A stretch of DNA of 64,000 bases. Origin: an uncultured delta proteobacterium (GTDB lineage Bacteria; Desulfobacterota; Desulfomonilia; UBA1062). The stretch spans positions 96,001 to 160,000 of the forward strand of contig CAVVYZ010000022.1 in the NCBI GenBank assembly GCA_963752595.1, read 5' to 3'. Within the stretch, counting starts at the first letter, position 1; each line of letters starts with the position of its first letter. The translations under genes and the position numbers were made by a program. This document shows, in pieces, positions 21,407 through 40,488 of the stretch. The notes under the pieces are model-generated. The model searched no databases. It had not been told where the DNA came from and worked only from the letters and a program-made list of their open reading frames with translations.

Positions 21407-21527
21407 TGATATGGCCGGTTATCGCTGAATATCTGCCTTTTATATTCCCTAATGACCAGCAAATGCATCGGATCTTATTTTATTATCTATTTTTGACATT
21501 TATTGTGCATCCTTTTTAGATCCGGAT

Positions 21528-21629
21528 CATCAAAAATATATAAAAAGAGAAACAGACCTAAAGAAGCAAACATTTAACCTCCTCTTATAGGATGGCGCGT
21601 CCTATGCCCTAACCGCCATCCTTTTTTTT
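21528..21629 (+). ncRNA. Candidate sRNA copy A (anti-SD motif plus terminator); 5' end inferred
   Basis: TTGACA at 21493 with a weak -10, then AACCTCCTCTT, a 9-bp stem AGGATGGCG/CGCCATCCT and a T run. Homologous to 40333-40386. Confidence 0.5.
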
Positions 21630-21662
21630 GCCCTTTCCCTTGAAAATATCGATATAATTTAA

Positions 21663-23078
21663 GAGCCGATTGCAAAACTCACAACGAGGGATAATATTGC
21701 GAATCAGCATATAAGTAATGAAATAGTGATGAGAAAGCTCTATTCTTTTTGTGCTGAGCAAAAAGAAAGGAGAAGCGATGAGCAATCTCTTCGAGATATG
21801 GAATACCAGACAGGCGAGATTTTTCCATGGTTGGAAGAGAGACTCGATCCGTTGAGTGATAAGGAGCAGCAATTTGTGAGAGTTGTCTGTCTGATGGACC
21901 TGCCGAAGCACATGCAGGGGTATCGCTGGATCGGGATAGGGAGGAAGCGAGAGGACAGGGTCTCAATCGCCAAGGCGTTTGTGGCGAAGGCGGTATACAA
22001 TTTTGAGACGACGAAGGTGCTCATAGAGTATCTGAAGGGGTGCAAGAATCCGAGGCGGTTATGCGGATGGGAGACGAGAGGAGATATTCCCTCTGAGTCG
22101 ACCTTTTGCCGGGCGTTTGGGGAGTACTCCCATGGATGCCTGCCACAGAAGATCCACGAGGCCATGGTGGAGGAGCATTGTGGGGACAAGCTTGTGGGTC
22201 ATGTGAGCCGGGATGCGACGGCCATAGAGGCGCGAGAGACGAGAGAAGACGATAAAGAAAGAAGCGGGTGAAACTGCGTCGGTGCCGAAGAGGAAACGGG
22301 GTCGCCCCAGGCAGGGAGAAGAAGTTGCTCCCAAGCCTCCGAAGAGGCTGGATCTTCAGGTTGGCCGGAGCCTGGAGGAGAATCTAAAGGATCTGCCGTA
22401 TCACTGTGCTGTAGGGACCAAGGTAGACAGCAAGGGATACAAGATGACCCGGAGGGGATACAAGCTGCATATCGACTGTATTGATGGGGATATTCCGGTG
22501 AGTGCATTATTAACCTCTGCGTCATTGCATGATTCCCAGGCAGCGATACCGCTTATGCAGATGACGTCGAAGCGGGTGGTGAGTCTGTATGATCTTATGG
22601 ATTCCGCCTATGATGCGCCGCAGATCAAGGAATTCAGTGAGGCGCTCTCGCATGTTCCGATCATTGATCCCAACCAGAGGCGAGGAGAGAAGATCCCGCT
22701 TGATCCAGCCAGGAAAGCTCGTTTTGCGCAAAGGAGCAGTAGTGAGAGAGTAAACTCGTATCTGAAAGACAACCACGGAGGAAATCATATCCGGGTAAGG
22801 GGGGCATCCAAGATCATGGCACATCTCATGTTCGGGCTCATTGTCATAACCGCGAATCAGCTTTTTCAGATGCTTTGTTGAAAGGTGTACATGCAAACTA
22901 GGACATATTCTCGGTACTTCCTGTGCAGTATGGCGGACAGCTACGCCCGAAAATCCGCATTTGGGCAATTTTTAGAATGGTAACATCAGGTAAACAGCTC
23001 TCATGACCTTGAACATAGAAAGTAACAGCGGCTTTGGGCTTCAAAATCTAAACCGGCTGAGAGTTTTGCAATCGGCTC
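21663..23078 (+). mobile_element. Insertion sequence (IS5/IS1182-like DDE), 1416 bp
   Basis: Perfect TIR GAGCCGATTGCAAAACTC (21663-21680 and 23061-23078) flanked by direct repeat TTTAA (21658-21662 and 23079-23083). Confidence 0.92.
21779..22881 (+). pseudogene. DDE transposase split by frameshifts near 21810 and 22245 (may be assembly errors)
   Basis: PSESTFCRAF and SRDATAIEARE in one frame; GYKLHID, LHDSQ, MDSAYDA and ERVNSYLK in the next. Confidence 0.85.
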
Positions 23079-23156
23079 TTTAAGTATGGAATTTCCTATT
23101 CTGCATCAATGATTTGAGATCGTCTCCCGGCATATTACAATATACTTCTAACCGCT

Positions 23157-23194
23157 TTGCAATATGTGTGTTCGGTTGCAATATGTGTGTTCGG
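23157..23194. repeat. Perfect 19-bp tandem duplication
   Basis: TTGCAATATGTGTGTTCGG occurs twice in a row. Confidence 0.9.
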
Positions 23195-23225
23195 GCAGAA
23201 TATTAGTGCAGGAGTGTTTTGATTT

Positions 23226-26111
23226 ATGAGCAATGGAACGATTACCCATGCTTCGGAGGAGGCCCTGCAGAAAGAAATGAATAACCTTCGCAGGCTGCTC
23301 ACGGAAACCGATTTAAAAAAAACTGCTATTTTTCATAATGATACCTATACTTCTCTCCTGGAAGACCTTCCTGATCTCCTGTGCCTCTTCCGGCCCGACG
23401 GCCGGATTACCTATGCGAATGCAGCGTTCTGCAAATATTTCAGGAAGAAAAAGCGAGAAACCTTAGGCAGCATGGTTTATAGCTACATTCCCAGAAAGGA
23501 CAGAAAACGTTTTGCCCACCAGCTTGAAAATATCGGCCCAAGCAAGCCGGTAAGGAGATTCGAATATCGGATAATGCCTCTTGACGGACAGATGCAGTGG
23601 TATCAGTGGACGCTCAAGGCCTTGTTCGACGAATCCGATGCACCTGTTGATTATATCCTTACGGGCAGGGACATCACCAGCCTGAAATCCATGGAAGAGG
23701 ATCTTATAGATGCCCTGGAGAAATACGCCACACTCTTCGAATCTACGAAAGATGCCATCATTCTCACTGACAAGGACAGATTTATAGATTGTAACACGGC
23801 AGCTCTCAAGATATTTCGCTGCAGAGACAAGGATGCGTTCCTCCACAGCAATTTTAAAGACTTTTCTTTCCCTGACCTCTCGGGAAAGCATGAGACGGGC
23901 AACGAGCTGCAGAAGCATTTTGAGCGTGCATCCAGACTGGGTATGGACCGTTTTCAGTGGATGTGCAGGCGCTCGGATGCAACCGTATTCCCGGCCGACA
24001 TAATATTAAGCCCCTTCCCTCTGGGTGCAAAAAAGATCGTCGCTGCCGTTATCAGAGACATTTCCGAGTTGAAAGAAACCGAAGAAGCCTTGAGAAAAAG
24101 CAGGGAACAATACCGGGAACTGGTGGAAAATATTAATGATGCGATTTTCTCTCTGGATGAAAACGGCACTATTACCTATACAAGCCCGGTGATTAAAAAA
24201 ATAACGGGCTATAAACCTCAGGAAATGACCGGCAGGCATTTTACCGATTTCGTTTACGCTGAAGACAGTAAAAGAATAAGCAGCCGGTATTCAGAGCTCA
24301 GGTCAGGAAAAATCCTGTCTTTCGAATATAGGATTCTGAAAAAATCCGGCGCCCTCTGCTGGGTGAGTGCCTTTAACAAGCCCATCATAGAGGGAGACAG
24401 GCTGAGGATTTATGGTGTCGTAACGGATATTACGAACCGGAAAAAGGCAGAAGAAGAGCTGAGAAAGGCGTATGACGAGCTCGAAGCAAAGGTAAAAGAG
24501 CGTACCGAAGAGCTCATCGAGATCAACAAACGCCTCACTCAGGAAATCCAGGAACGGAAACTGATCGAAGAAACCCTCCGGACAAACGAAGAACGGTATC
24601 GAATGAAAGCAGAAGAGCTTGATGTCGTACTGAACGGTATAACCGACATCATCATGATGCAGGACACTTCCCTGAATATTATCTGGGCCAATGAAGCAGC
24701 CTCCCGAACCCTCTACCTTTCACCGGAAGAGCTCATCGGGAAAAAGTGCTACGAGCTTTGGCAGGGCAGCTCTGCGCCGTGCGATAAATGCCCGGTGACC
24801 AGGGCGGTAAAAACAGGCTTGCCCCATGAGGAAACGGTAAAAACAAAAAACGGTGCTCTCTGGCAGGTCATGGGCTACCCGGTCATGGACGACCACGGTG
24901 CCGTCAGGGGAGCAATCGAGATATCAAGGAATATAACGGGAAGAAAATACCTGGAGGAAGAACTCCAGAAGCGGTACAAGCTCGATTCCCTGGGTACACT
25001 TGCAGGTGGAATCGCACATGATTTCAATAATATTCTTACCGTAATCCTGGGCAATGTATCGTTTGCAAAAATGCTGATCGATGCCCAAGAAAAGGTTTAC
25101 GGCAGGCTGGATGACATCGAGAAGGTATCTATGAAGGCACAAGACCTCACCGGTCAGCTTCTGACTTTTTCCAAAGGGGGAAGCCCTTTGAAAAAGAAGA
25201 TGCACCTGGACCAGCTTCTGCGGGATACTGCCCATTTCGTACTCCGGCATTCCGAGGTCACTGCCCGTTTTCACACCGAAGCAGATCTCTGGCCTGTGGA
25301 AGCAGACGAGTCGCAGATCGCTCAAGTCATTCAGAATATTATCCTCAATGCCAGACAAGCCATGACCGATGGCGGGACGATTACCATAGAAGCCGGCAAC
25401 AGTTCACGATCGGACGACAACCCCCTCTTCTGTCCCGAGGGTAACCATGTAAAGATAACCATCAAGGACACAGGCTGCGGTATCGATGAAGCGGTTCTCA
25501 ACAATATCTTCGATCCCTTCTTCACTACGAAAAAGAAAAGTCACGGCCTCGGGCTCGCCACCTCTTATTCCATTGTGAGGAAACACGGCGGCCATATCAC
25601 TGCGTCGTCTACGCCCGGCAAAGGCACGACGATAACCATATATCTCCCTGCTCTAATCGAAACAAAAGAAGAGCCTCGCACGGAGATTCAGGAAACCTTC
25701 CCGGGCAAAGGCCGCATCCTGTTCATGGATGATGAGGCTTTCATCCGCGATCTGGCCAAGAGCATTCTTTCCCATCTGGGCTATGAAATTGTCTTTGCAA
25801 GAGATGGCAACGAAGCAATCCAGGTATTTGAAAAGGCAATGAAGGACGGTGAAGGCTTTGATGCCGTGATTCTGGACCTCACCGTTGTCGAAGGGATGGG
25901 CGGGAAGGAATGCATCAAAGAGTTGAAAAGGATGGATCCCGGGGTAAAGGCCATCGTATCGAGCGGCTACTCGAACGATCCTATCATGTCTGAACCGGGG
26001 AAATACGGGTTTACGGCTTTTATAGCAAAGCCGTATAGTATTCAGGCGCTCAGCTCGGTATTAAGAAACACTATCCAAAGAGAGGCCGTCTCCTGTGAGA
26101 TTACCGGATAG
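23226..26111 (+). CDS. Cytoplasmic multi-PAS hybrid sensor histidine kinase with receiver domain
   Basis: Four PAS-like units, H-box GIAHDFNN, DTGCG, FDPFFTTK, GLGL, and receiver ILFMDDE..ILDL..AKPY. Confidence 0.95.
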   Translation: MSNGTITHASEEALQKEMNNLRRLLTETDLKKTAIFHNDTYTSLLEDLPDLLCLFRPDGRITYANAAFCKYFRKKKRETLGSMVYSYIPRKDRKRFAHQLENIGPSKPVRRFEYRIMPLDGQMQWYQWTLKALFDESDAPVDYILTGRDITSLKSMEEDLIDALEKYATLFESTKDAIILTDKDRFIDCNTAALKIFRCRDKDAFLHSNFKDFSFPDLSGKHETGNELQKHFERASRLGMDRFQWMCRRSDATVFPADIILSPFPLGAKKIVAAVIRDISELKETEEALRKSREQYRELVENINDAIFSLDENGTITYTSPVIKKITGYKPQEMTGRHFTDFVYAEDSKRISSRYSELRSGKILSFEYRILKKSGALCWVSAFNKPIIEGDRLRIYGVVTDITNRKKAEEELRKAYDELEAKVKERTEELIEINKRLTQEIQERKLIEETLRTNEERYRMKAEELDVVLNGITDIIMMQDTSLNIIWANEAASRTLYLSPEELIGKKCYELWQGSSAPCDKCPVTRAVKTGLPHEETVKTKNGALWQVMGYPVMDDHGAVRGAIEISRNITGRKYLEEELQKRYKLDSLGTLAGGIAHDFNNILTVILGNVSFAKMLIDAQEKVYGRLDDIEKVSMKAQDLTGQLLTFSKGGSPLKKKMHLDQLLRDTAHFVLRHSEVTARFHTEADLWPVEADESQIAQVIQNIILNARQAMTDGGTITIEAGNSSRSDDNPLFCPEGNHVKITIKDTGCGIDEAVLNNIFDPFFTTKKKSHGLGLATSYSIVRKHGGHITASSTPGKGTTITIYLPALIETKEEPRTEIQETFPGKGRILFMDDEAFIRDLAKSILSHLGYEIVFARDGNEAIQVFEKAMKDGEGFDAVILDLTVVEGMGGKECIKELKRMDPGVKAIVSSGYSNDPIMSEPGKYGFTAFIAKPYSIQALSSVLRNTIQREAVSCEITG

Positions 26112-27117
26112 CGGCCAATATATCGGCTCCCTTATCGGTCAGTGCCTTGGCGATGCCGTCGGATTCCCGGTCGAAGGTCAGCCGTATGCCGTCTGCAAAG
26201 AATACGTGGAGGAAATAATTGAAGAAGGGCCTGGGCTGAGAGCCAGGCCCGGGTATGTTTTCGGCCAGTATACTGATGACTCGCAACTTGCACGCGAGCT
26301 GATTATCAGTTGCGTCTTATCCAGGGGCTTCAATCCTGAAGATTATGCCGGGCGGATAGCGGATATCTTCTCCAAGGGAAAAGTCGTGGGAGGAGGAACT
26401 GCTACCTGGGAGGCTGCAATCCGCTTGTCACAGGGCATTCCCTGGTACGAGGCAGGAACCCCAAGCCCGTCTGCCGGAAACGGAAGTGCCATGCGGGCAG
26501 GACCCGTCGGTCTGATGTTCTTCGACCGAACCGAATCCCTGATCAAGGCAGCACATGATCAGAGTATCATCACCCACAAGGATATCAGATGTTCCGTAGG
26601 TTCTGTAGCCATTGCCGGATCTGTCGCATTGGCCCTTGTAAACAAACCCGTTTCCAAGCCGGAGTTCATCAATGAGATATCGCGGCTGGTTGCGACAATC
26701 GACCCGTCGGCCGAAATCGCCTTTGCATCGCTGATCAACTGGATCGATCTTGAGCCTATCGATGCGCTCCGGGAAATTGTCAGTGCCGGGTATGCCTTTG
26801 GAGACTGGCAGGATTGGCAGGGACTGACCCAGTTTGTTACAGGAACCGTTCTTTGGAGCCTGTATGCGTTTCTGCACTCCCCGGAAAGCTACCTGGAGAC
26901 CCTTGCCTCTGCCATAGAAGTCGGTGGCGATGTTGACACCACGGCGGCAATGGCCGGGGCTATCAGCGGGGCCTACCTCGGAATCGAAAATCTTCCCGGC
27001 GAACTGATAACGCATCTCACAGACGAAGAAACATGGGGATTCGATGAACTCACCCAGTTGGCAATCGATCTCTATAATCTGAAAGTATTTCAAAAAAAGA
27101 TCCCGGCATATACCTGA
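26095..27117 (+). CDS. ADP-ribosylglycohydrolase family protein
   Basis: GDAVGFPVE, YTDDSQ, GNGSAMR, ITH and GGDVDTTAAMAGAISGA motifs. Confidence 0.93.
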   Translation: MRLPDSGQYIGSLIGQCLGDAVGFPVEGQPYAVCKEYVEEIIEEGPGLRARPGYVFGQYTDDSQLARELIISCVLSRGFNPEDYAGRIADIFSKGKVVGGGTATWEAAIRLSQGIPWYEAGTPSPSAGNGSAMRAGPVGLMFFDRTESLIKAAHDQSIITHKDIRCSVGSVAIAGSVALALVNKPVSKPEFINEISRLVATIDPSAEIAFASLINWIDLEPIDALREIVSAGYAFGDWQDWQGLTQFVTGTVLWSLYAFLHSPESYLETLASAIEVGGDVDTTAAMAGAISGAYLGIENLPGELITHLTDEETWGFDELTQLAIDLYNLKVFQKKIPAYT

Positions 27118-27237
27118 ACCGGCGCTTTTGCCGGTGTTTTGTCCTTGTCGGTTTTCCTTCCTGCCCGACTGCATTGACATGGGCTGAAGCAAATCCCTAC
27201 TTATATCATAACGAAGCAATCAAGAGGAGTTTCTCCC

Positions 27238-27624
27238 ATGAACGATAAAGAATATTTTGACAACACGAAAGGGAAAGGGGTTCTCGCTACGGCAGATGCC
27301 CAAGGTAATGTCGATGCTGCGCTCTATGCAAAACCTTTCTTCGTCGATGAAAAGACCGTAGTGTTCATCATGGCCGACCGGTTGAGCCATGAAAACCTGA
27401 AATCAAATGTCCACGCGGCATACCTCTTCATGGAGGAGGAAAACAGCTTGAAAGGAAGAAGGCTCTACCTGACAAAAATTCGGGAGGGAAAAAATTCCGA
27501 ACTCATCGATGAGTTGAGGCGCTTGAGAAATTATGCCTCTCAGGACAGGATATATGAAGAGGATTCATATCTTGTCTATTTTTCAATCGATAAAGTAACG
27601 CCTTTGATCGGGCACGGCTTATGA
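27238..27624 (+). CDS. Pyridoxamine 5'-phosphate oxidase-like FMN-binding protein
   Basis: GVLATADAQGNVDAA..HENLKSN pattern. Confidence 0.75.
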   Translation: MNDKEYFDNTKGKGVLATADAQGNVDAALYAKPFFVDEKTVVFIMADRLSHENLKSNVHAAYLFMEEENSLKGRRLYLTKIREGKNSELIDELRRLRNYASQDRIYEEDSYLVYFSIDKVTPLIGHGL

Positions 27625-28479
27625 ACCGGCAGAACCGGATTTATGCTTCCATAGAAGCCTGTTTACAAGGCCGGCAATGACCCCACCGAAGCCTATGATC
27701 AATGCGCAGGCGGTAAACAGCCGCCCAACAAAGGGAGCCATGCCTGCCAGGCTTATTGCCACAGTTCCGGCTAATGTTTCCAGAAGCATAGGTCTGTCCG
27801 GCATTTTCAAGGCGAGGAAGAGTTTTTTTCCTATGAGCTGGACAACGGCGACGTAGCCGATAAAAAATGCAATGCCCACCAGAAGCATCTCGAATGGGAT
27901 AAGGATGATGCCGATGATCGAAATAAGAAGCATGAACGCTACGGGGAAGATCGAAGCACTCCCGAGAATGCCTAAAAAGAATGTCTTCAGTAAAGCGTGC
28001 TCGATGGTAAAGGAAATATATCCGATGGCGCGGGGTGCTATGGCAACCGTGATCAGGGCAAGCGCGAGAAAGCCTATAAAGGGAAAGATGCTAAACGGGG
28101 TATGAAACCCGTAGGGCATATCCCGCCAATGGTCATTCCCGGGCATGATAAATGATTTTATCCGGGAGGGATCGATAACGGTGATATCTCCGAGAACCGA
28201 AGCGCCTTGCTCTTTCACCACCGTCCCACCGAGAGAAACGATATTCCCTTTGATTATCGAACCCGGCCCCAGGAACACTGATCCGCCCACGGCAACTACA
28301 TCATTCCTGACAAGCCCGTCCACACGGACATCACCGCCGAGCGAGACTGCCGAATCCACCTCTTGTCCCCGCTCCACGGTCGCATTCCTGCCCAGTTCGA
28401 CCAGGGTATCCGCCTTTGCATATGCCGGAATGCAGATCATGCACAGCATAACGGCCGGCCAGGTTATCATTCGCGTCAT
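27619..28479 (-). CDS. Membrane protein with N-terminal beta-helix (polymer-forming cytoskeletal-like) repeats
   Basis: Signal peptide, repeats VSLGGDV/VAVGGSV/VSLGGTV, then several TM helices. Confidence 0.7.
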   Translation of the reverse strand: MTRMITWPAVMLCMICIPAYAKADTLVELGRNATVERGQEVDSAVSLGGDVRVDGLVRNDVVAVGGSVFLGPGSIIKGNIVSLGGTVVKEQGASVLGDITVIDPSRIKSFIMPGNDHWRDMPYGFHTPFSIFPFIGFLALALITVAIAPRAIGYISFTIEHALLKTFFLGILGSASIFPVAFMLLISIIGIILIPFEMLLVGIAFFIGYVAVVQLIGKKLFLALKMPDRPMLLETLAGTVAISLAGMAPFVGRLFTACALIIGFGGVIAGLVNRLLWKHKSGSAGS

Positions 28480-28561
28480 GTCATCTGCTCCTGATTTTTT
28501 CCTGCTCTATCGTTGAGCACGATATACAAGGGACTTTGTTTCCTTTATACAGCTCTCCCTG

Positions 28562-29419
28562 TTACCCTCTGGAAAACCGCCTGATATTCACTATCCGCAA
28601 GATGAGCACCACGCTCAGGTATACTGCACCGGCCAGAAGAATGATCGTTGCTCCGGTAGGAAGTCCCGGCCCGTAACTTATAGCCAGCCCGCCTGTAGTG
28701 AATGCGGCGGAAAAAAACATGGAGAGCACCATCATGTGCCCGAGCTTCTTGGAAAAATATCCGGCTGTTGCCGGAGGCAGCGTCAGGAGTGCGATAACCA
28801 TGACAATACCGACCACGCTGAGCATGAGCACAACGGTCAATGCTGTCAGGCACAGGAGCAGAAGGTAATACACCTCGACTCGCACGCCGCGCAGAAGGGC
28901 AAATTCCTCATCGAAGCAGACGGCGAGGAACTTGTTGTAGAAGATAAGGACAAGGACGATGATGAGCAGATCGAGGCCTGCCATGAGCCAGATGTCTCCC
29001 TGTGTCACCATGAGGATGTTCCCGAAGAGATAGCTCATCAGATTCTCGCTGTATCCCGGGGTCTTGAAGATGAACATGATACCCGCCGCCATGCCGATTG
29101 CCCATACGGCACCGATCACCGTATCCTCCCGCTGCTTTGCTCGGAGGCTCACCAGGCCGATGATGACGGCGGAGAGGAGAGCTGCGATCGTTGCGCCGAT
29201 GAGGGGATGAAACCACTCCCATCTCAGCACGACCTCACAGTATCGTGCCGCACCCATCCCGCCCAGAACGCTATGGGAGATAGCTCCTGCGATATATGTG
29301 ATCCTCCTGGTGACGACATAACTGCCGATTATCCCGCATGCAACACTGGCAAGAAGGCCTGCCATAAGTGCATACCTGAGGAACGAAAAGCTCATGAGAT
29401 CGGACAAGAATTCAGTCAT
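28562..29419 (-). CDS. znuB: Zn/Mn ABC transporter permease
   Basis: ISHSVLGG, YLFGNIL, FDEEFA and VGIVMVIALLTLP motifs. Confidence 0.9.
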   Translation of the reverse strand: MTEFLSDLMSFSFLRYALMAGLLASVACGIIGSYVVTRRITYIAGAISHSVLGGMGAARYCEVVLRWEWFHPLIGATIAALLSAVIIGLVSLRAKQREDTVIGAVWAIGMAAGIMFIFKTPGYSENLMSYLFGNILMVTQGDIWLMAGLDLLIIVLVLIFYNKFLAVCFDEEFALLRGVRVEVYYLLLLCLTALTVVLMLSVVGIVMVIALLTLPPATAGYFSKKLGHMMVLSMFFSAAFTTGGLAISYGPGLPTGATIILLAGAVYLSVVLILRIVNIRRFSRG

Positions 29420-30170
29420 GCAGTTTCCCTTTTTTAGGATTCATATCATGATCATGCCTGACCATCTGTACCTTTGATCCATAAATCTCATTAATTATAT
29501 CTCCGGTAATATCACAGGTCGGATGGCACAGAAGCCTGCGGTTTACGCAGGCGACATTTTTCACGTGCCGTGAAACAAACCCGAGGTCATGGGTTACGAG
29601 CACGATGGTCATCTTCTGGTTCAGCTGATTGAGAAATTCGTAAAATTCCGTCTCTGCAGCGGCATCAACATTTGCCGTAGGTTCGTCGAGAAGCAGAAGA
29701 TCCGGGTGTGAGACGAGTGATCTGGCTATCAGCACCCGCTGGGTCTGCCCTCCGGAAAGGTCGGCGAACGGTCGGCTCCTCACCCCATAAAGATCCACTG
29801 TTCTAAGGGCCTCCTCTGCTGACAGTTTATCAGACTTGCTGTACCCCCCGAACCGTATGCCTGTCCCCAGACGTCCCATGAGGACGACGTCAATGACCGT
29901 TACAGGGAACAAGGGGTCAAGGGCGGTATGCTGCGGCATGTATCCGATTCTGGTTCGTGCCTTTTCCGGAGATGTCCCGAACACGCTCACCTTGCCTTTG
30001 TCCGGTTTTACGAGGCCCAGGATGAGCTTTAAAATCGTTGTTTTTCCACCGCCGTTCGGCCCCACGATGGACAGAAAATCCTGCTCTTGGATCTTTAAGC
30101 TCACATCTTCCAGGACCGGCATGCGCCCGTAGGTAAAGGATACCGCATCAAGTTCGATTACCGGCTTCAT
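29412..30170 (-). CDS. znuC: Zn/Mn ABC transporter ATP-binding protein
   Basis: GPNGGGKT, LSGGQTQR, LLDEPT; His-rich tail. Confidence 0.9.
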   Translation of the reverse strand: MKPVIELDAVSFTYGRMPVLEDVSLKIQEQDFLSIVGPNGGGKTTILKLILGLVKPDKGKVSVFGTSPEKARTRIGYMPQHTALDPLFPVTVIDVVLMGRLGTGIRFGGYSKSDKLSAEEALRTVDLYGVRSRPFADLSGGQTQRVLIARSLVSHPDLLLLDEPTANVDAAAETEFYEFLNQLNQKMTIVLVTHDLGFVSRHVKNVACVNRRLLCHPTCDITGDIINEIYGSKVQMVRHDHDMNPKKGKLHD

Positions 30171-30219
30171 CTTTTCACGATACCTCTCATATCCTATAAT
30201 CCCCTTTCATCTTCGGGTC

Positions 30220-31095: not shown

Positions 31096-31124
31096 ATTAT
31101 TTACCTCCGGGTCTTATCCCCATA

Positions 31125-31385: not shown

Positions 31386-31407
31386 GCTATACTCTCACCG
31401 GACCTTA

Positions 31408-31459
31408 GTAATACTATGTAATACTTTTGTATTAGAAACCAAGACCTGATAATTGTCAA
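31408..31459 (-). promoter_or_regulatory. Sigma70 promoter of the RHH-znuACB operon with overlapping operator-like repeats
   Basis: Minus strand TTGACA(31459-31454)-17 bp-TCTAAT(31436-31431). GTAATACT twice at 10-bp spacing and palindrome TAATAC-N4-GTATTA. Confidence 0.65.
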
Positions 31460-31612
31460 GATCACTCATAAGATATACATAATGAATACTTTCGGTTACT
31501 TTTTAGCAGGATCGGAGCAGTGCGTTCGCGATCAATCCGGGGTGCATACCTCTCTTAAAATCGAGGGCTTCCGGTTACGCCGCCTTCACGAGGCATACTG
31601 ACCGTACAATCA

Positions 31613-32563
31613 CTACTTTTTTGACGTACCCTTGAGCACCTTGAAAAAGTCGTAATCCGTACTGAGGATCAGGGTTGTATTGTCGAAAGAGGTTTGCTTA
31701 TACGTCTCGAGGGTCTTGTAGAAGGAATAAAATTCCGGATCCTGATTGTAGGACTTCCCATAGATCCTGGTGACCTCGGCATCGGCCTTTCCCTTGATCT
31801 CTTCCGCTGTCTTGAAGGCCTCTGACCGGATAGCCTGGAGATCTTTACCCATGCGCCCGGTTATCTCTGCCTTTTTTCCCTCTCCTTCGGATATCAGCTG
31901 AGCTGCCTGGTATTTCCTTTCGGAGATCATCCGGGCATACACCCTATCTTTGACCTTTTCTCCGTAGTGTAGGCGCTTTACCTGAACATCTACGAGTCCC
32001 ATGCCAAAGCTCGAGATGGATTTCGAGGCTCCCGCAAGCATCCTTCGGGCGACGGCATCCCTCCCCAGCACAACCTTTTCCCCTGGTACGGCATCATTTG
32101 TGGTAAATTTATCACCGCTATCCCAGCCGGGGACGGACTTGATCTGATCCGACGACCTTACCAGCTCAACGAGGGGATTTGCTGCGACAGTATCCTTCGC
32201 AATCGAATCCATGATGTCATCAAGCTTGGCGTATGCCTGGTCATAGGTTCCGATCGCCTTGATGAATGTCATCGGATCGACGATCTTCCATCTTGCAGTC
32301 ACCTCTATCCGGATGATCATATTATCACGGGTTGAGATCTCGCCTGAATCTCCATTCCACCTGAGTATCCGCTTCTCGAATTTCGCAACCCTCTGGACAA
32401 GGGGAATCTTGAAATGAAGGCCGGCTTCTTTGACTGACCTTACCGGGTTCTCGAATTGCAAGATGGCTGCCTGTTCGTATTCGCTGACCGTATAGAATGC
32501 ATCGAACATGCTCAAAACCGCAAGTGCGCAAAGGAAGACGAGGATGACTTTTGCTGTTTTCAT
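31613..32563 (-). CDS. hflC: FtsH modulator HflC
   Basis: SPFH domain, GLHFKIP, RMISER and DPEFYSFYKTLE motifs. Confidence 0.92.
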   Translation of the reverse strand: MKTAKVILVFLCALAVLSMFDAFYTVSEYEQAAILQFENPVRSVKEAGLHFKIPLVQRVAKFEKRILRWNGDSGEISTRDNMIIRIEVTARWKIVDPMTFIKAIGTYDQAYAKLDDIMDSIAKDTVAANPLVELVRSSDQIKSVPGWDSGDKFTTNDAVPGEKVVLGRDAVARRMLAGASKSISSFGMGLVDVQVKRLHYGEKVKDRVYARMISERKYQAAQLISEGEGKKAEITGRMGKDLQAIRSEAFKTAEEIKGKADAEVTRIYGKSYNQDPEFYSFYKTLETYKQTSFDNTTLILSTDYDFFKVLKGTSKK

Positions 32564-33594
32564 CGCTCACCCCCTGTTCCCGGCATGCGCTTTTCCGAAT
32601 CGAACAAAGGGAATACGTTTTTCTGTCTGCTGTCAATCACCTGCACCTGCCTGGCCTTGGGCAGGACCTCGCGGCAAGTCTCAAGGTAGAGCCGCTTCCG
32701 CGTTACTTCTTTGGCATTGCGGTATTCATGCAGCACATCATTGAACCGTGATGTTTCTCCTTTTGCGACATTGGCACGCTCCAGGGCATACCCCTGGGCC
32801 ATATTAACGAGGCCGGCCGCCTCGCCGCGCGCCTTTGGTATTTCACGGTTATAGGCTTCCAGGGCCTGGTTGATAAGGCTTTCCTTTTCCTGCCGGGCCG
32901 CATTTACTTCATTGTAAGCATCCCTGACCTGGTCAGGAGGCAGTACATTCCGAAGCCGGACATCTACAACCTTTATTCCGCTGTCATACCTGTCGAGCGA
33001 CCTCTGAAGCTCGTCTATAAAGATTCTGCTTATTTCCTCCCTGTTCTTGAGCACATAATCGAAACTCCGATCGCTTACGACCCCTCTCATGACCGATTCG
33101 CTGATATCCCGGATGGATTGAACGGAATCATGGATGCCGAGCAGGAACTTCTTCGGGTCCTGGCGCTTATAGTGGACGCTCCATTCGAGGTCGACTATGC
33201 TCAAATCACCTGTAAGCATCAATGATTCTTTCATGCTTTCCGGATCTTTCCGATATCTGTTTCTGATACCCGGCTTGCCGCTCCTGAATCCGAACGACTC
33301 GCTTTCGATCGTATCCGTGTTCACCTCGATCACTTTATCTACTCCGAAGGGTACCTTGAGATGCGGGCCGGACAGCACAATACCTGAAAATTTCCCGAAT
33401 CGCATAATTACGCCCTGGTATCCGGCAGGTACGGTATAAAACGAAGTGAAAGCACCTCCTGCCAGAATCAGTAGCATTGTTAAAATGATGCCGATGGTCC
33501 TCCCTGTGTGCTTCCGTGCATCGGAGCCCGGATTCACAGGCATCATCGTTTCGGTTTTATCCTGATCGCCCGGCTGTTGCGCATTCAAGGACAT
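32560..33594 (-). CDS. hflK: FtsH modulator HflK
   Basis: LMLTGD, PPDQVRDAYNEV, IPKARGEA and TRKRLYLET motifs. Confidence 0.92.
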   Translation of the reverse strand: MSLNAQQPGDQDKTETMMPVNPGSDARKHTGRTIGIILTMLLILAGGAFTSFYTVPAGYQGVIMRFGKFSGIVLSGPHLKVPFGVDKVIEVNTDTIESESFGFRSGKPGIRNRYRKDPESMKESLMLTGDLSIVDLEWSVHYKRQDPKKFLLGIHDSVQSIRDISESVMRGVVSDRSFDYVLKNREEISRIFIDELQRSLDRYDSGIKVVDVRLRNVLPPDQVRDAYNEVNAARQEKESLINQALEAYNREIPKARGEAAGLVNMAQGYALERANVAKGETSRFNDVLHEYRNAKEVTRKRLYLETCREVLPKARQVQVIDSRQKNVFPLFDSEKRMPGTGGER

Positions 33595-33787
33595 AGCAGA
33601 TCTCCCTTTTCAAGGATTATAACCAGTTACGATTAGGTATCCTTGGGGTAGCTTCCTTGTCAATGTCAAAGAAGAAATTTTACTTTCATCTTAAGTGCGG
33701 ATAAAGTAAATTTATCGGTTGAGTCCAGGGACACCCCAATGAATGCTTAAAATTTTATACCCATGCTGCTTAGGGAGAATTTCAGCG

Positions 33788-34639
33788 ATGACCGGTTCGA
33801 TGTCTTCAGGATACCTGCAGACGATCCCTTCACAATACGCTTCCCTTGCGTCTTTTAAGATGCACTTTCTTGAGATGGGCGAAGGAGACCCTCTGATCCT
33901 GATCCATGGAGGGGGAGTGTGGCTGTATTCTTTCAGGCACAATCTCCGGGATCTTTCCTGCTTCTTTCGAGTATATGCCCTTGATATGCCGGGATACGGC
34001 TATACGCTCCCGCTGCAGGATACCGTATCATACGGTCTTGAGACAGCTGCAGAAGTTTTGCTCGAATTCATGAATATGAAAAATATCGAACGGGCATCGC
34101 TTCTCGGGCATTCCTGGGGAGGCGGATGGGTGCTTCGTTTCGCTTCTCAATATCCGGAACGGGTGGAAAGGCTCATCCTCATAGACTCAAGCGGTTTTAA
34201 TGTTCCCGATGTTCTCGAATGGGAACTCATGAAGTATCCGGTTATCGGAGGACTCCTCATGAAATGCATCACGGTCGGCATCGTGAAAAAACGCCTTGAG
34301 CGCTCCTTTTTTCACAAGGAGATGGTAAGCCGCGATATGGCTGAAGAGGTCTACCTTCCCTTGACATTTCCCTACAACCAGAAGGCCCAGTTGAAGATTG
34401 CAAGAAACCAGGACTGGTCGCTGACCGAAAGATTAATGCCTGTAATACGGCACCCCTCGCTTGTCATCTGGGGAGATCATGATGCATATCTCGATACCGA
34501 ACTGCTGCACCGGTTTCACCGGCAACTGCCGAATGCGCGAACCTTTCTCTTCAAGCAATGCGGACACTCTCCCCACGAGGAGTACCCGCAGGATGTCAAT
34601 GCCTTGATCACGGCGTACTTAAGGCAAAAAGCTGTCTGA
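33788..34639 (+). CDS. Alpha/beta fold hydrolase
   Basis: LIHGGG, DMPGYG, GHSWGG, WGDHD and GHSPHEE motifs. Confidence 0.9.
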   Translation: MTGSMSSGYLQTIPSQYASLASFKMHFLEMGEGDPLILIHGGGVWLYSFRHNLRDLSCFFRVYALDMPGYGYTLPLQDTVSYGLETAAEVLLEFMNMKNIERASLLGHSWGGGWVLRFASQYPERVERLILIDSSGFNVPDVLEWELMKYPVIGGLLMKCITVGIVKKRLERSFFHKEMVSRDMAEEVYLPLTFPYNQKAQLKIARNQDWSLTERLMPVIRHPSLVIWGDHDAYLDTELLHRFHRQLPNARTFLFKQCGHSPHEEYPQDVNALITAYLRQKAV

Positions 34640-34782
34640 CAGGGATTGGGGGATCGATTTAATCACTGGCTTTTTTTCACCCGATTATCAATAATGATGT
34701 TTTGATATTGGTGATTCTTATCCGTTCGTTTACTTAATAGTATTATTGCACGCCTTGAAAAACCAGGCAGGAGTTACAGAGT

Positions 34783-35979
34783 ATGTTTTTGCCCATAGGA
34801 GACAGCCCTAATCCGAAGAATTACACTCCATGGATGAACTGGACCCTGATCGCAGCGAATATCCTGGTTTATGTGTTCATCACCATACCCCTCTCCCGCC
34901 GGGGCGTGAGCATGAATGACCCGCTCCTGCATGAATACCTCCGGACCATTGCGAATCAGCTCCCGCCAGGGGTCACGATCAACGAAGTTTTATCCCAGGT
35001 CAGCTCATACGATCTCTATACCTTTGTCCATGGATATAAACCCGGTGCCCCGAAAATAGCCAATCTCTTTTACAGTATGTTTCTCCATGGGGGCATCCTC
35101 CACCTCGCGGGGAATATGCTCTTCCTGTGGATTTATGGCGACAACGTTGAGTACCGGCTTGGAAAGATAGGGTACCTGATGACCTATCTTTTTACCGGTG
35201 CGCTGGCCACCCTGTTCTTTGCCCTCTTCGCAGGACCTTCCATGGTGCCGCTCGTAGGCGCATCAGGAGCCATATCAGGAATTCTGGGCGTTTATTTCCT
35301 TCTCTTCCCGAGAAACAAGATCAAGGTATTCATCGCGCTCATTCCTTTTTACGTGGATGTCCTTTCCATGCCGTCGCGTCTGGTCCTCGGCATTTTCATC
35401 GTCATTGACAATCTCCTGCCTTTTCTTATCAGCCACCAGTCAGCAGTGGCTTATGGCGCTCATATCGGGGGCTTTCTGGGAGGAATGTCTATCGCTTTTG
35501 TCGGCGAAAGGTTTTCCTGGCACTGGCCCTGGAGGGACAGCATGTGGCATGTCGGAAATGCCATGACGCGGATAAACCCGGCATCAGGAAAAGAAAGTAT
35601 CGCAAATCTTTCGGAACTACGGGCTGCCATGAATGAGAATTTGCCGGGGAAAGCAGTGGACATCCTCGCTCACATGGAGGGAAAGGATGTATCCGTGCTC
35701 AAAACCGATGAATGCATAACCCTGTCCCAGTGGCTCGATGAATCAGGACATCCCATTGCCGCATCGAGGATGCTGAGGCAATGCGTGACAAACCGGCAGA
35801 AATCCGAAACCCTCGCTGATGTCTATCTTGCTCTTGGCCTCATGCGCCTGAAACAAGGGCAGCCGACGGCAGCCTACCAATATCTCCTCTCGGCCCTCAA
35901 GAATCAACCCTCTGAAGAAACCGAAAAACAAACCAGGGATGCTCTGAGCCGGATTGACATCTACCGGAGCGCCCACTGA
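34783..35979 (+). CDS. Rhomboid intramembrane serine protease with C-terminal TPR-like helices
   Basis: MFLHGGILHLAGNM, GASGAISG and AHIGGF; TPR-like tail. Confidence 0.9.
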   Translation: MFLPIGDSPNPKNYTPWMNWTLIAANILVYVFITIPLSRRGVSMNDPLLHEYLRTIANQLPPGVTINEVLSQVSSYDLYTFVHGYKPGAPKIANLFYSMFLHGGILHLAGNMLFLWIYGDNVEYRLGKIGYLMTYLFTGALATLFFALFAGPSMVPLVGASGAISGILGVYFLLFPRNKIKVFIALIPFYVDVLSMPSRLVLGIFIVIDNLLPFLISHQSAVAYGAHIGGFLGGMSIAFVGERFSWHWPWRDSMWHVGNAMTRINPASGKESIANLSELRAAMNENLPGKAVDILAHMEGKDVSVLKTDECITLSQWLDESGHPIAASRMLRQCVTNRQKSETLADVYLALGLMRLKQGQPTAAYQYLLSALKNQPSEETEKQTRDALSRIDIYRSAH

Positions 35980-36181
35980 TTCAAAAGGGGCAGTATTCTT
36001 CTTGTGCTTGAATATTTCCATTTTATGGGTAATCTTATTCCTTTTCCTTCCCTCTCTTCATCAAATCGCCTAATATATTGTTATTACATATCATTGGCAA
36101 AGGCATATTATTTGCTTTAATTTACGCCGTGCAGAGGAAAAGCTCAACCATTCTGACATCTTCAAGGGAGGAAAAGCTGCT

Positions 36182-36478
36182 ATGAAGACCGTCGCCATCA
36201 CTTTTCTTTTAACCCTTATTCTTTCCTCACCGATCCATGCATTTATGAAATCGGCAACTGAATATGCGATAGCGAGTGCAGAGCAGAATATCATTCCCCG
36301 GAACCTATCGGATGACCTTGATAAAGATCCGGGCAGTAAGGTTGACAAGCCCCTCGTCGTAATCCTGGGAGATGCCGGGGAAGTATATTTCCTTTTCATG
36401 AACCAGCTTTTCGGTCTTCACAAAAACGATGAGGCCCTTCTTCCATGCAGCACCCCTCTCCAAAAATCTTTTAATTGA
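36182..36478 (+). CDS. Hypothetical secreted protein
   Basis: RBS GGGAGG and signal peptide MKTVAITFLLTLILSSPIHA. Confidence 0.55.
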   Translation: MKTVAITFLLTLILSSPIHAFMKSATEYAIASAEQNIIPRNLSDDLDKDPGSKVDKPLVVILGDAGEVYFLFMNQLFGLHKNDEALLPCSTPLQKSFN

Positions 36479-36872
36479 GAAAAATGAAGCTGATAAAGTA
36501 TCTTATCTCCCCCCATCATCTTACATCTGCACCGGCTTTCTTCGGTAGTCCGTCAGTACTTTATCATAGTTACTCTGTGCAACAACCCAGGTGATGCATT
36601 TAAGACACAGGCCATCCGCTCTGACCTCGTATAATCAATACCTTATAACCTGGCCTACATCTTGCTGTTACTTGGGCATGGAGATTTTTCAGGACATCAG
36701 ATATGTATTGACAGAGGTCCCGCATGCGGTCTCCTTTGTCTTTTTCTTTATCATATCCCTCTGCCTTTGCCTCAAACGAGCCTGATCTTCCGGATCGTAC
36801 AGATCAGAAAGGCTCATTCCCCGGGGTGAAGGCGAGAATGATCCGGAATGCTTCTGGTCATCCTGCGGGTAT

Positions 36873-37292
36873 TCATTCCTTAAGAAAGATATCATGGAAG
36901 GTTACCATAGGGCATTTACTTTCCTGAAGATCCGATAACGAAGCGAAGTCACGGGGTTTCGATCTTGCATGATCATACCATGCAACGTAAAGCATCACCT
37001 GTTTCCCCAGGGGAATATCACTGACCTCCCAGTATCTGTAAAATGACACATTACCTTGTAAAATCGGATTTTCAGGATCTTGGTGCCATTCCGGAGACAT
37101 CTGGGAAGATTCTGCAGGAAGATTTTTCAAGGAGACAAGTTTTGTATGTGCCAGGATCGAGGCAGTGGTAAGGTCTTCGGAATACCTGTTCGAGCGGATC
37201 GATACTATCGAAAATTTCATGTATGAGAGAAAAATGATCATAATGACAAGGAGTGCTACCAGCACTTCAAGAAGGCTGAACCCTTTCTTCAT
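36873..37292 (-). CDS. Type IV pilin-like protein (PilV-like)
   Basis: Prepilin cleavage motif KKG|FSLLEVLVALL. Confidence 0.85.
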   Translation of the reverse strand: MKKGFSLLEVLVALLVIMIIFLSYMKFSIVSIRSNRYSEDLTTASILAHTKLVSLKNLPAESSQMSPEWHQDPENPILQGNVSFYRYWEVSDIPLGKQVMLYVAWYDHARSKPRDFASLSDLQESKCPMVTFHDIFLKE

Positions 37293-37879
37293 TTTATTAT
37301 CTCCCATGAGCTTCCGTACCGCCAGATTCTGATGACCCCGGAGGCGGGCAAGACTCTGATCGCTATGGAGGAGGTATCATTCCGCAGGTAGATGCTGCCG
37401 GAATTGCAGCATCCCATGGGTGAGAAGGTGATACGGTTGTCCGAGAAACTTACTCCGTCATCCGGGAGATCCGTATCATTCGGCCCTTTGTGAGAACGGC
37501 AGCCGAAGCGGACCGGTTCACTCAGGGAAAACGGCCCGAGTAGTCTTTCTCCCGGGTCTATCCGGGAGTCGCCATTCTGGTCGCCATAGCACACCCATGA
37601 TCCATGGCCAGGGTTGAAGACAATGCGCCACGGATATCCCTGATCCATCGCCAGATCCCGTGCCCGGTGAATCATGGTTGCCAGGTGTTCTGTCTGTTGA
37701 GATAGTTCCTTACCTGATGTAAGTCTGCTCAAGTTGGGAAAGGCGAGCGCGGCCAGCAGAGAAATAATACCCAAGACCACGAGCAGTTCGAGAAGATTGA
37801 AGCCCCTTTCCTTTGATCCCTGTGAAATTTTGCCGGATCCGACCTGTCCAAATGCAAAAATAGAGCACTTGTCCTGCAT
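37289..37879 (-). CDS. GspH/FimT family pseudopilin
   Basis: RG|FNLLELLVVLGII motif, ARDLA and ITFSPMG. Confidence 0.88.
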   Translation of the reverse strand: MQDKCSIFAFGQVGSGKISQGSKERGFNLLELLVVLGIISLLAALAFPNLSRLTSGKELSQQTEHLATMIHRARDLAMDQGYPWRIVFNPGHGSWVCYGDQNGDSRIDPGERLLGPFSLSEPVRFGCRSHKGPNDTDLPDDGVSFSDNRITFSPMGCCNSGSIYLRNDTSSIAIRVLPASGVIRIWRYGSSWEIIK

Positions 37880-38003
37880 TTTTCAGTGAGAATTATCCCC
37901 TCCTCAATACCATATCAATACATCATGATACTCATGTATACACCGGATCTGGGTAAAATACCAGGATTTATCAAGATCAATTGTATCAGGAAGATAAAGG
38001 ATA

Positions 38004-38498
38004 TTATTTCATCGATGAAAAGGCTATCGATGGCTCCCCCTGTTCATTCATTACCAATATCCCGTTTTCCAGAAGTAATGCAGCGGTTACCCCGACACCC
38101 TGAATTCTTCCTTCCTGCGACCGCACCTGATTCGTTCCGCATGAAGGGCTTCCTTCCTTGAACACAGCCCGGCTTATATTGAGGACATACGCCAGTTCCA
38201 GGACATGCATGGCGCCATTGATAAAGGATCCGGTAACGTTGACCCCATCGGCATTTACGATTCGAGCCCTTTCTTTCAGAACATCCCGGCCGTCGCCACT
38301 GACAAAACATGCGGTCGGCCGTGGAGTAGGCAGTCCGCCGAGCCTTTCCGGACAGACAGGAACAGGCGTAAAATTCTTTGATGAAAGAATTCCTTTACAG
38401 GGTTTCGCTTTCCCGTCATACCGGCAGTTGATGCCCAGGAGGCAGGCACTGACCAGGACCGGGCCTTCTAGATATCCAAAGGGGGATTTACAAGGCAT
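38004..38498 (-). CDS. DUF523 / 2-thiouracil desulfidase-like protein
   Basis: VSACLLGINCRYDG, VCPE..GGLPTPR and SPSCG motifs. Confidence 0.9.
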   Translation of the reverse strand: MPCKSPFGYLEGPVLVSACLLGINCRYDGKAKPCKGILSSKNFTPVPVCPERLGGLPTPRPTACFVSGDGRDVLKERARIVNADGVNVTGSFINGAMHVLELAYVLNISRAVFKEGSPSCGTNQVRSQEGRIQGVGVTAALLLENGILVMNEQGEPSIAFSSMK

Positions 38499-39121
38499 AG
38501 GGACTCATCCTTCTCAAGCCCTTGAATGAAGACCTTTCTGCCCACGATGTCGAGCCTTCCCTGAGCAAAGAGCTGTAAGGCCTTGGGATATATTTTATGC
38601 TCAAGGGCAAGGATCCTGTTTTTCAGGTCTTCTTCCGCATCATCCGGATATACAGGCACTACGGCCTGAATGATGATGGGGCCGGTATCTACCCCTGCAT
38701 CAACGAAATGCACGGTACAGCCTGAAAAACGGACGCCATGGTCTATGGCCTTCTGCCTTACCCCGAGGCCGGGGAAAGAGGGAAGCAGCGCAGGATGGAT
38801 ATTTATCACCCTTCCGGGGAATTCCTGGAGAAATCCCTGGGTGAGGACCCGCATGAAGCCGGCGAGGGCGATGAGATCCACCTGGTATTCGTGGAGGATT
38901 CGTACGAGCTCACGGTCAAATTTTTCCCGGTCCGGGTATGTGCTGTGGGGGACGACGGCGGCGGGTATTGATTTCTGTTCAGCCCTTTTCAGGGCGAACG
39001 CCTCTGATGTGTTGCTGATGACCACAGCTACGCGGCCGTCAATCTCACCCCGCTCGCAGGCATCCATGATCGACTGCAGGTTGGACCCGCTTCCGGATAC
39101 CAGCACGCCTATCCGTATCAC
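38468..39121 (-). CDS. purN: Phosphoribosylglycinamide formyltransferase
   Basis: SGSGSNLQ, LAGFMR, NIHPALLP and GCTVHFVD motifs. Confidence 0.97.
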   Translation of the reverse strand: MIRIGVLVSGSGSNLQSIMDACERGEIDGRVAVVISNTSEAFALKRAEQKSIPAAVVPHSTYPDREKFDRELVRILHEYQVDLIALAGFMRVLTQGFLQEFPGRVINIHPALLPSFPGLGVRQKAIDHGVRFSGCTVHFVDAGVDTGPIIIQAVVPVYPDDAEEDLKNRILALEHKIYPKALQLFAQGRLDIVGRKVFIQGLEKDESLCLVNPPLDI

Positions 39122-39131
39122 TTAGGCCCTC

Positions 39132-40172
39132 CTACTCTTCGAAAACAACCGGGGCCTCTCCCTTTTTCAATGTCCTCACATACCCGATCACACTTGCAGA
39201 TTCTTTCAGGCCTTTGAGTCGCAGAAGCACGTCCTCTGCATCTTTTTCAGCCACGATAAGCACCATGCCGATGCCCATGTTGAACGTCCGGTACATCTCA
39301 AGATCTTCGATCCTTCCGAGATCCTGGATAAACGTGAATATGGGGGGTACCTGCCAGGAGTTTTTCTTTATTACAACGCCGGTCCGCGCTGATAAAACCC
39401 TTGGGATATTATCGATGAACCCGCCGCCCGTGATATGGACGATCCCTTTGATCTCAAACGCCCGGAGCAGGTTCAGAATGCTTTTTACATAGATTTTTGT
39501 CGGAGTCAGGAGCTCTTCTGCAAGGGTTTTGCCGATGTCTTCGACATAATCATCGATCTTCATCCGAGCCCTGTCGAAAAGGACCTTCCGCACCAGAGAG
39601 AAACCGTTGCTGTGAACACCTGAGGACTGCACCCCGATGACAACGTCTTTTGCGGAGACCCTCGAACCGTCGATGATCTTATCGCTGTCGACTATTCCTA
39701 CACCGAACCCGGCGATATCATATTCACCATCACTATAGATTCCCGGCATTTCGGCGGTTTCACCGCCGATCAGAGCGCAACCTGCCTCTTTGCACCCTTT
39801 GGCCATGCCGGTAACGATTGTTTTTGACCGCTCCACATCGAGCTTACCGGTCGCCAGATAATCAAGGAAGAAAAGCGGGGTCGCACCATCAACGACGATG
39901 TCGTTCACGACCATGGCCACGAGATCTATGCCGATAAATTCATGATTGTCTGCCATAAGGGCGATCTTGATCTTCGTTCCTACCCCGTCGGTGGAAGAAA
40001 CGAGAACCGGATCTTTGAAGTTTCCAACGTCCAGCTTGAATAAACCGGCAAATCCTCCGATCCCGCCAAGGACTTCAGGCCCGTATGTGGATTTGATGAC
40101 GGATTTAATCCCTTTGATAAAGAGATTCTGCTTATCGATATCAACGCCAGCTTCTTTATATGTCAATGACAT
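39132..40172 (-). CDS. purM: AIR synthase
   Basis: YKEAGVDI, TDGVGTK, GGETAEMPG, HITGGG and TFNMGIG motifs. Confidence 0.97.
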   Translation of the reverse strand: MSLTYKEAGVDIDKQNLFIKGIKSVIKSTYGPEVLGGIGGFAGLFKLDVGNFKDPVLVSSTDGVGTKIKIALMADNHEFIGIDLVAMVVNDIVVDGATPLFFLDYLATGKLDVERSKTIVTGMAKGCKEAGCALIGGETAEMPGIYSDGEYDIAGFGVGIVDSDKIIDGSRVSAKDVVIGVQSSGVHSNGFSLVRKVLFDRARMKIDDYVEDIGKTLAEELLTPTKIYVKSILNLLRAFEIKGIVHITGGGFIDNIPRVLSARTGVVIKKNSWQVPPIFTFIQDLGRIEDLEMYRTFNMGIGMVLIVAEKDAEDVLLRLKGLKESASVIGYVRTLKKGEAPVVFEE

Positions 40173-40332
40173 GGGTAACCCCCCTTACGCACATCTTCCT
40201 ACTATAGTATCCTTCTTCTAGTCAATTATGCTTTCTGATGAATCCGATTTTTCCTGATGGAAATTAGTTTTGGATTAAGGCAGATGAATCGCGGGCTCGA
40301 TTCCGGGACTAGCCGCAGGCTGGTATTCTGAT

Positions 40333-40488
40333 AAAAAAATAGGGATGGCGCCTGGGCAAGGGAACGGCCATCCCGAAGAGGAGGTTTTTTGCTATGAAGA
40401 TCTTTTATCGATGAGACTGAAGGACGGTTACCTCCTTATTTCGGTTTCCTCCAGTCCGGATTATATCGCTTGATATCGATTCATATGC
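40333..40488 (-). ncRNA. Candidate sigma54-dependent sRNA copy B; 5' end inferred
   Basis: No credible ORF. Ends in AACCTCCTCTT, an 8-bp stem GGGATGGC/GCCATCCC and a T run. Homologous to 21576-21629. Confidence 0.55.

Follow-up and report, generated by a model that had tools for sequence, protein, structure and literature searches.

Candidate sibling anti-Shine-Dalgarno small RNAs with ECF-type and sigma54 promoter motifs in a largely uncultured family of Desulfomonilia

LhrC, the cuckoo RNAs and the Qrr RNAs are multicopy small RNAs (sRNAs) with C-rich seeds, the Qrr siblings being sigma54-driven; RybB, MicA and MicL are made in Escherichia coli under sigmaE, a sigma factor of the extracytoplasmic function (ECF) class. 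Sibling sRNAs with different inputs reportedly have precedent (PMC6262261; PMC4211561). The csRNAs of Streptococcus, in the part of their description available, are siblings with an unpaired anti-Shine-Dalgarno (anti-SD) and anti-AUG sequence ahead of a terminator, controlled by the stress two-component system CiaRH (PMC3091779); CpxQ, in the accessible part of its source, lies in the 3′ untranslated region (UTR) of cpxP, a chaperone gene of the CpxP/Spy/ZraP type, under its own two-component system (PMC4817254). OxyS has replaced a protein gene beside its regulator and stayed in the regulon; the study of its origin derives it from a peroxidase mRNA to which its sequence similarity is low, and leaves undecided whether function came before or after loss of the coding sequence (CDS) (PMC8825220). 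Here we describe two elements, copy A and copy B, in a 64,000-nucleotide (nt) stretch of DNA from an uncultured delta proteobacterium of the class Desulfomonilia (contig CAVVYZ010000022.1, positions 96,001 to 160,000; hereafter the window). Both are real, conserved members of one family, which likely works like the csRNAs, sits like CpxQ and changes like OxyS, and which is a member of none of these.

An initial annotation, made from the window alone, had proposed a sibling sRNA family from these two elements, and we find their sequences as given there: copy A at 21576–21629 on the plus strand, starting 170 nt past the stop codon of an amidohydrolase gene at 21406, and copy B at 40386–40333 on the minus strand, with no same-strand gene upstream of it in its own genome. 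The core starts with an A/U-rich leader and the sequence ACCUCCUCUU; these are followed by a stem of 9 bp, which encloses a loop of about 16 nt, and by a U-tract. A seed-plus-stem pattern derived from A and B matches twice in the window and not at all in 100 shuffles, but this count is circular because the pattern was drawn from the elements themselves, and it is the conservation of the elements in other genomes that proves them independently.

The genome to which the window belongs (G000; 4.12 Mb, 84% complete; genomes, contigs and loci are given G, C and L numbers) holds four copies, the further two at C1:410972 and C1:415503, and more occur across the family. The exact pattern is present in 25 of 36 genomes of the same family and in none of 24 genomes of a sister family in the class, with no matches in a reversed control. 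A covariance model built from 60 copies (threshold E≤0.05) finds matches in 30 of the 36 family genomes, three of which have only weak matches that are other elements, and in none of the 24; there are at most four copies in any genome, and the diverged copies recovered by the model retain ACCUCCUC of the seed. Ten weak matches within the family (28–34 bits) were excluded as other elements, and the single weak outside match in a phylum-wide sample of 151 genomes (G202, 33 bits), in which the anti-SD seed is absent, was discarded. In a species collection the exact pattern gave 67 loci, with titles that include Desulfomonilia bacterium, Syntrophaceae bacterium UBA1062 and UBA6087, and Deltaproteobacteria bacterium Phox-21; one match titled Bacteroidales is without the loop and U-tail. 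The hosts are a family of sludge and sediment bacteria, to judge from these titles a Desulfomonilia lineage. With up to four homologues in one genome, alike in seed and structure, the elements form a sibling family of candidate sRNAs. At one locus (L027; G024 C61:10691–10984) two identical B copies lie around a run of N, a doubling that is probably an assembly artefact.

Elements present in several copies might be miniature inverted-repeat transposable elements or other mobile repeats of the repetitive extragenic palindrome type, and an insertion sequence does adjoin copy A: a DDE transposase in two open reading frames (ORFs) occupies window positions 21726–22881 (plus strand), between copy A and the position of a PAS kinase gene in relatives, and a second copy of the same transposase is at C1:405814–406966. 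We give this explanation hardly any credence, considering the low copy number, the conservation of the neighbourhoods across genera, the absence of any match to the element pattern among the viral contigs searched, and the absence of terminal repeats apparent in the alignments, at which no separate test was aimed.

The anti-SD sequence, stem, C-rich loop and terminator that A and B had been noted to share are kept across the multicopy family. UGCCC stands unchanged in the loop of every one of the 60 copies compared, the search pattern having set no condition on the loop. Seven stem pairs are fixed by construction in the pattern-selected copies; when the copies found by the covariance model are added, in a model-fitted alignment of 72 related sequences, five of the nine stem pairs have changes on both sides, 97.8% of 645 cells pair, and pairing exceeds every slid control, so that the terminator stem covaries. 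We consider it very probable that the elements encode sRNAs. That of copy A is predicted to be about 90 nt long (21539–21629, plus strand), with its 5′ end placed by the geometry of the ECF-type promoter described below and a score of 82.2 bits under a model (R1) that was itself built with copy A included; it would comprise the anti-SD seed AACCUCCUCUU at 21576–21586, which belonged to the search pattern, and a terminator-like hairpin at 21590–21629 (stem 21590–21597 with 21614–21621, loop UGCCC at 21605–21609, then the U-tract). Copy B is predicted to give a stand-alone sRNA of about 157 nt (40333–40489, minus strand), close to the 155 nt first suggested, at a place where relatives have a zraP-like CDS. 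Its parts, all on the minus strand, are a predicted 5′ hairpin (40414–40457) common to G004 with paired changes, as judged from the folds of two genomes only; CUUCAUAG, a candidate anti-AUG, followed by the anti-SD seed (40376–40399); and a terminator-like hairpin (40333–40374; stem 40374–40367 with 40349–40342, loop UGCCC at 40358–40354, then the U-tract).

These hairpins could be plain intrinsic terminators of upstream genes with an incidental anti-SD match, given that the element ends a zraP-like gene in 20 copies and that A often follows a radical SAM/amidohydrolase operon. However, terminators need no fixed sequence, whereas seed and loop are invariant here; each copy has its own promoter motif, B is retained without the CDS, and at many A copies (for example L029, L060, L065, L067 and L097) the upstream gene is divergent, so that there is nothing to terminate. 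We regard simple termination as improbable. It is also unlikely, though less so, that the elements are real sRNAs that act by binding a protein, as a decoy or sponge, or another RNA, rather than by covering ribosome-binding sites. The stem and loop are near-invariant beyond the needs of a terminator, and no specific mRNA target was found; but CsrA decoys carry GGA in loops, whereas here it is located in the stem. Moreover, the seed is an exact anti-SD sequence in all copies, which the predicted folds leave unpaired in copy B of G000 and in G011 but show as partly paired in four others (A, G001, G009 and G015), so that accessibility varies, and most B copies have a CAU upstream of it, as in the csRNAs in the available part of their description (PMC3091779).

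A cis-acting role, as leader or attenuator of the downstream gene or as the hairpin and ribosome-binding site of a small protein encoded antisense to the element, seems to us very improbable. It is true that purM lies downstream of B here and a PAS kinase gene often downstream of A, and that an ATG is found on the antisense strand, 3–12 nt past the SD sequence, in 20 of 58 copies; the downstream genes are nonetheless variable and often convergent, and the antisense ORFs, which many copies do not have at all, share neither length nor sequence across genera, so that no conserved antisense peptide was found opposite the element.

Comparison with described families places the elements outside all of them. 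Against Rfam 15 neither A nor B reaches the gathering score of any family, the window yielding two tRNAs only; at E≤10 copy B has no relevant match, and no cuckoo, Qrr or csRNA family is among the matches. Membership of LhrC (RF00616) was rejected, since copy A has 19.1 bits where 110 are needed to reach the gathering score, as was membership of the atoC RNA (RF01733), to which copy A scores 19.1 bits against a cutoff of 50. The atoC RNA is similar in being delta-proteobacterial and C-rich with a terminator at its end (PMC2864571, from the accessible part), but its true members differ in anatomy, as they have one hairpin more and a terminator whose loop contains CCCUCCU, and RF01733 is present in 4 of the 151 genomes and in none of the host family. 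Four atoC matches (L031–L034) start with a −10-like box (e.g. GGTATAAT), end in a CCCUCCU-loop terminator and have varied gene contexts, and judging from these sequences the atoC motif, rather than regulating in cis, may itself represent an anti-SD sRNA. As far as the available parts of their descriptions allow comparison, the csRNAs form one regulon in another phylum, whereas the promoters here are of the ECF type or sigma54, not CiaR, and some copies are in an mRNA 3′ UTR; CpxQ differs in that the family here has no Rfam match, a host gene that is zraP-like and sigma54-driven, stand-alone siblings, and an element that persists without the CDS; and OxyS differs in that the present family has one seed and hairpin whether or not the CDS is there, with CDS-less forms in more than one lineage. 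No description of the family was found in the openly accessible literature that was searched, and it is apparently undescribed.

The copies fall into two promoter classes. Among 78 distinct copies, 48 have an ECF-type motif only, 20 a sigma54 site with a ZraP-like CDS, and 8 a sigma54 site only; the other two are cut by contig ends, so that all 76 with enough upstream DNA can be assigned. The proposal that A and B respond to different inputs is thereby upheld at the level of promoter class.

For copy B, the suggested sigma54-like site is present at 40514–40501 on the minus strand (TGGCA-N6-TTG, −24/−12) and conserved among relatives. Upstream of it, two TGTATA..TATAC palindromes (40612–40660, minus strand), kept in five of five aligned loci, are candidate enhancer sites for a ZraR-like activator, and divergent from B are the genes for a sensor kinase (40666–42507, plus strand; identified with Pfam and by its best NCBIfam hit, ZraS, at 411.8 bits against a cutoff of 479) and a sigma54 response regulator (42509–43861, plus strand; best NCBIfam hit ZraR, 557.9 bits against 760). 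In relatives the same palindromes and sigma54 site precede a gene for a protein of 155–185 amino acids (Pfam Metal_resist), for which the best NCBIfam hit is ZraP at 63.5 bits against 200, with the CpxP model also below its cutoff; because all three scores lie below the cutoffs, we use the names ZraP-like, ZraS-like and ZraR-like. The element is about 15–110 nt past the stop codon of this gene, and in 20 copies, not including copy B of the window, the conserved seed lies between the stop codon and the terminator, within the 3′ UTR; this usual place of B had not been recognised in the initial annotation. Type B is likely driven by sigma54 and the ZraSR-like system.

In eight copies (G000, G001, G004, G009, G011, G013, G015 and locus L078, the last also without a kinase neighbour) the CDS is absent from the locus; on alignment the enhancer and sigma54 sites match while the zraP-like CDS is missing, and the seed is 33–179 nt past the −12 box. 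Only a 25–31% paralog, of a kind that CDS-bearing genomes have too, is found in G000, G001, G004 and G011, and a tblastn search of G000 gave no significant match; G009 (80% complete) and G013 (78% complete) have none, and G015 has a 36% homolog at another place, its C1:19687 being a candidate for a relocated zraP. In a tree of the ECF and GcvPB proteins from 29 genomes, those five members of the genus that have no CDS group together with an ultrafast bootstrap (UFBoot) support of 100, beside a CDS-bearing clade (UFBoot 100), and G013 and G015 lie outside the genus. Since homologous zraP genes hold the same site in four genera, loss is favoured over gain, and we infer that the zraP-like CDS was lost, likely at least twice. 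The short CDS-less leaders align poorly to the CDS and are therefore not clean deletion remnants. We note that the leader in G013 (L196/L227) contains a 39-codon ORF with an SD sequence, and that in G004 contains a 26-codon ORF whose G000 counterpart stops after 7 codons; they share no peptide.

For copy A, a sigma70 promoter had been suggested, and there is a TTGACA at 21493, but a consensus scan called no sigma70 promoter on the plus strand, and the orthologues do not show the site; what is conserved is an ECF-type motif. This motif, WG[CA]AWC-N15-17-CATC, occurs within 95 nt upstream of all 48 copies that have neither a sigma54 site nor a ZraP-like CDS, against a background of 16 in 4188 gene-upstream windows of G000. 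In copy A it takes the form TGCATC (21506)-N16-CATC (21528), giving a candidate ECF-type promoter at 21506–21531 (plus strand) with TGCATC as −35, a T-tract, a 16-nt spacer and CATC as −10. A matrix made from 46 sites scores above 18 bits at 19 places in G000 and at one in the reversed genome; three of the 19 are A-type sRNA sites themselves, and the others include one at rpoH and one upstream of rpoD, as well as those at genes for a DEAD-box helicase and a PAS kinase. Tandem high-scoring sites at C1:397924 and C1:398024 (plus strand) are followed by no ORF, and past them lie tandem TTGACA promoters and a boxA-like tract, an arrangement that suggests an rRNA operon leader.

The bipartite motif with its spacer near 16 nt also occurs at an ECF sigma factor gene, a combination that points to ECF-dependent promoters, and type A is likely driven by such a factor. 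The best placed is the ECF gene after gcvPB (C20:51282–51887, minus strand, in G000), which has orthologues in 35 of the 36 family genomes and whose partner is a small Cys/His protein with a weak, below-cutoff match to zf-HC2. Of 30 loci fetched, 28 could be parsed, and in 26 of these GAATC-N-YATC stands immediately before the start codon of the ECF gene, with gcvPB ending in differing frames. Among published groups, and from the part of the source available, ECF18 has the −35 sequence TGCATCTT and ECF293 has soluble zinc-finger anti-sigmas with roles in oxidative stress (PMC7826278). The predicted regulon resembles that of E. coli sigmaE in being ECF-driven with sRNA members and in including rpoH and possibly rpoD, but the partner is a small soluble zinc-finger-like protein, not RseA, and the seed is a generic anti-SD sequence.

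It could instead be that the sRNA reading is right but that type A owes its transcription to a different sigma factor (RpoH or one of its RpoH-like paralogs) or to a transcription factor that binds a repeat, although we consider this rather unlikely. Paralogs of RpoH are present, a related motif precedes rpoH in four of four genomes viewed, GCATC occurs twice about two helical turns apart, and the spacing resembles that of the sigma32 sites of the regulon described for delta-proteobacteria, in the accessible part of that paper (PMC545781). However, the motif is not seen upstream of groES (which has a CIRCE element), hrcA, htpG, clpB, dnaJ or lon in G000, which argues against the classic sigma32 chaperone regulon, and its presence at the ECF gene in nearly all loci points to the ECF factor.

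If the elements act as we propose, the family would encode trans-acting sRNAs that pair through ACCUCCUCUU with Shine-Dalgarno regions and lower translation. The same seed would be delivered under cytoplasmic, probably thiol or oxidative, stress through the ECF factor in type A, and under envelope or metal stress through ZraSR in type B; in the lineage of G000 the output of ZraSR at the B promoter would be RNA only. Pairing with translation starts assisted by Hfq would be the most likely action; the genome has an hfq gene, and the RNAs have the hairpin and U-tail of Hfq-dependent sRNAs. Transcription, Hfq use and repression are all inferred here. The initial annotation had pointed to an 11-nt complementarity between B and the ribosome-binding site of the gene starting at 13641, while noting that SD pairing is generic. 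The complementarity exists, but as a target the gene is not special: of 3639 genes of at least 80 codons scored by duplex energy (from 4208 gene calls), 68 match or exceed its pairing with B, and 956 its pairing with A, and the A-run that pairs with this site varies across copies. The UGCCC loop may act as another seed or bind a protein; its pairing with the internal start region of the ECF gene is not conserved. The 13641 gene, which encodes 74 amino acids, lies in a part of the window (11200–15100) that is possibly an island, with short unannotated ORFs and AT-rich tracts, adjoining a tRNA-Thr(CGU) gene at 15023–15094.

We think it probable that the whole model holds, in which sibling anti-SD sRNAs are fed by an ECF factor (type A) and by a sigma54/ZraSR-like system (type B), with repeated conversion of an mRNA tail to a stand-alone RNA; that a single anti-SD module has been wired in three ways, as a zraP-like 3′ UTR, as a stand-alone sigma54 sRNA after repeated CDS loss, and as ECF-driven siblings, we put at about even chances. 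A number of observations weigh against parts of this picture. Folding gives only modest z-scores, of −2.44 for A and of −0.89 and −0.48 for B, and neither hairpin was called by a simple terminator scan, which accepts loops of up to 8 nt and probably missed both because theirs is longer. No specific or conserved target emerged from the ranking, which gave a generic list of strong SD sequences; AGAGGAGGT-ATG starts also occur, among the matches listed, in element-less genomes such as G018 and G026; and exported proteins, called with a crude predictor, are only marginally enriched at GAGGAGG starts (35 of 108 versus 64 of 286, p=0.05), with two further contrasts at p=0.18 and p=0.59. As to CDS loss, the tree backbone is weak (support 30–53), and G000 is incomplete (84%). 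As to the ECF factor, its orthologue is also in G017, G018, G025, G026 and G033, where no copy of the element was found, the site upstream of rpoD is present in only two of four genomes, and the site of the ECF gene itself ends TATCTAA directly at the ATG, so that standard geometry would start transcription within the CDS. Codon ~25 of the ECF gene is ATG in 21, CTG in 3, TTG in 2 and GTT in 1 of 27 loci, and an internal start could give a shorter sigma isoform or a message for the anti-sigma only.

Two other candidate elements were seen. One, with the form ACCTCCT(C)TTT-GCCAGG..ACCTAAA..CCTGGC-T-tract, is a parallel multicopy element found mostly in genomes without the main family (L197, L198, L215, L221, L222, L232, L233 and L239, in G023, G031 and G017; also in G027), as detected with a loose pattern that also matches by chance; at four of these loci it has TTAA-N15-RCCGAT or GACGAT upstream, which we take to resemble sigma28 sites. 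The other occurs three times in G000 (C1:215837, minus; C2:304252, plus; C17:21859, plus) and consists of an anti-SD sequence, a long hairpin (GCCAGAAGA..TCTTCTGGC) and a T-tract, one copy being near an amtB-like gene; it is possibly a further sRNA family.

Sibling sRNAs with anti-SD seeds are known as a class, as is their mechanism; the present analysis adds, for a largely uncultured family of Desulfomonilia, a family of candidate sRNAs together with a promoter code of the ECF type (−35 TG[CA]ATCC, −10 CATC). Near-identical seed and hairpin sequences with the CDS (20 copies), without it (8 copies) and under a second sigma factor favour the view that function came first. If the three-way wiring is true, regulation by the 3′ UTR arose while the protein was still encoded, and the protein was given up later; a two-component stress response now has an RNA as output instead of a chaperone, and the ribosome-binding sites of a single set are reached from two stress regulons. 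The route from messenger RNA to regulatory RNA would then be visible in extant genomes, which would offer natural intermediates for comparing how sRNAs arise and join regulons.

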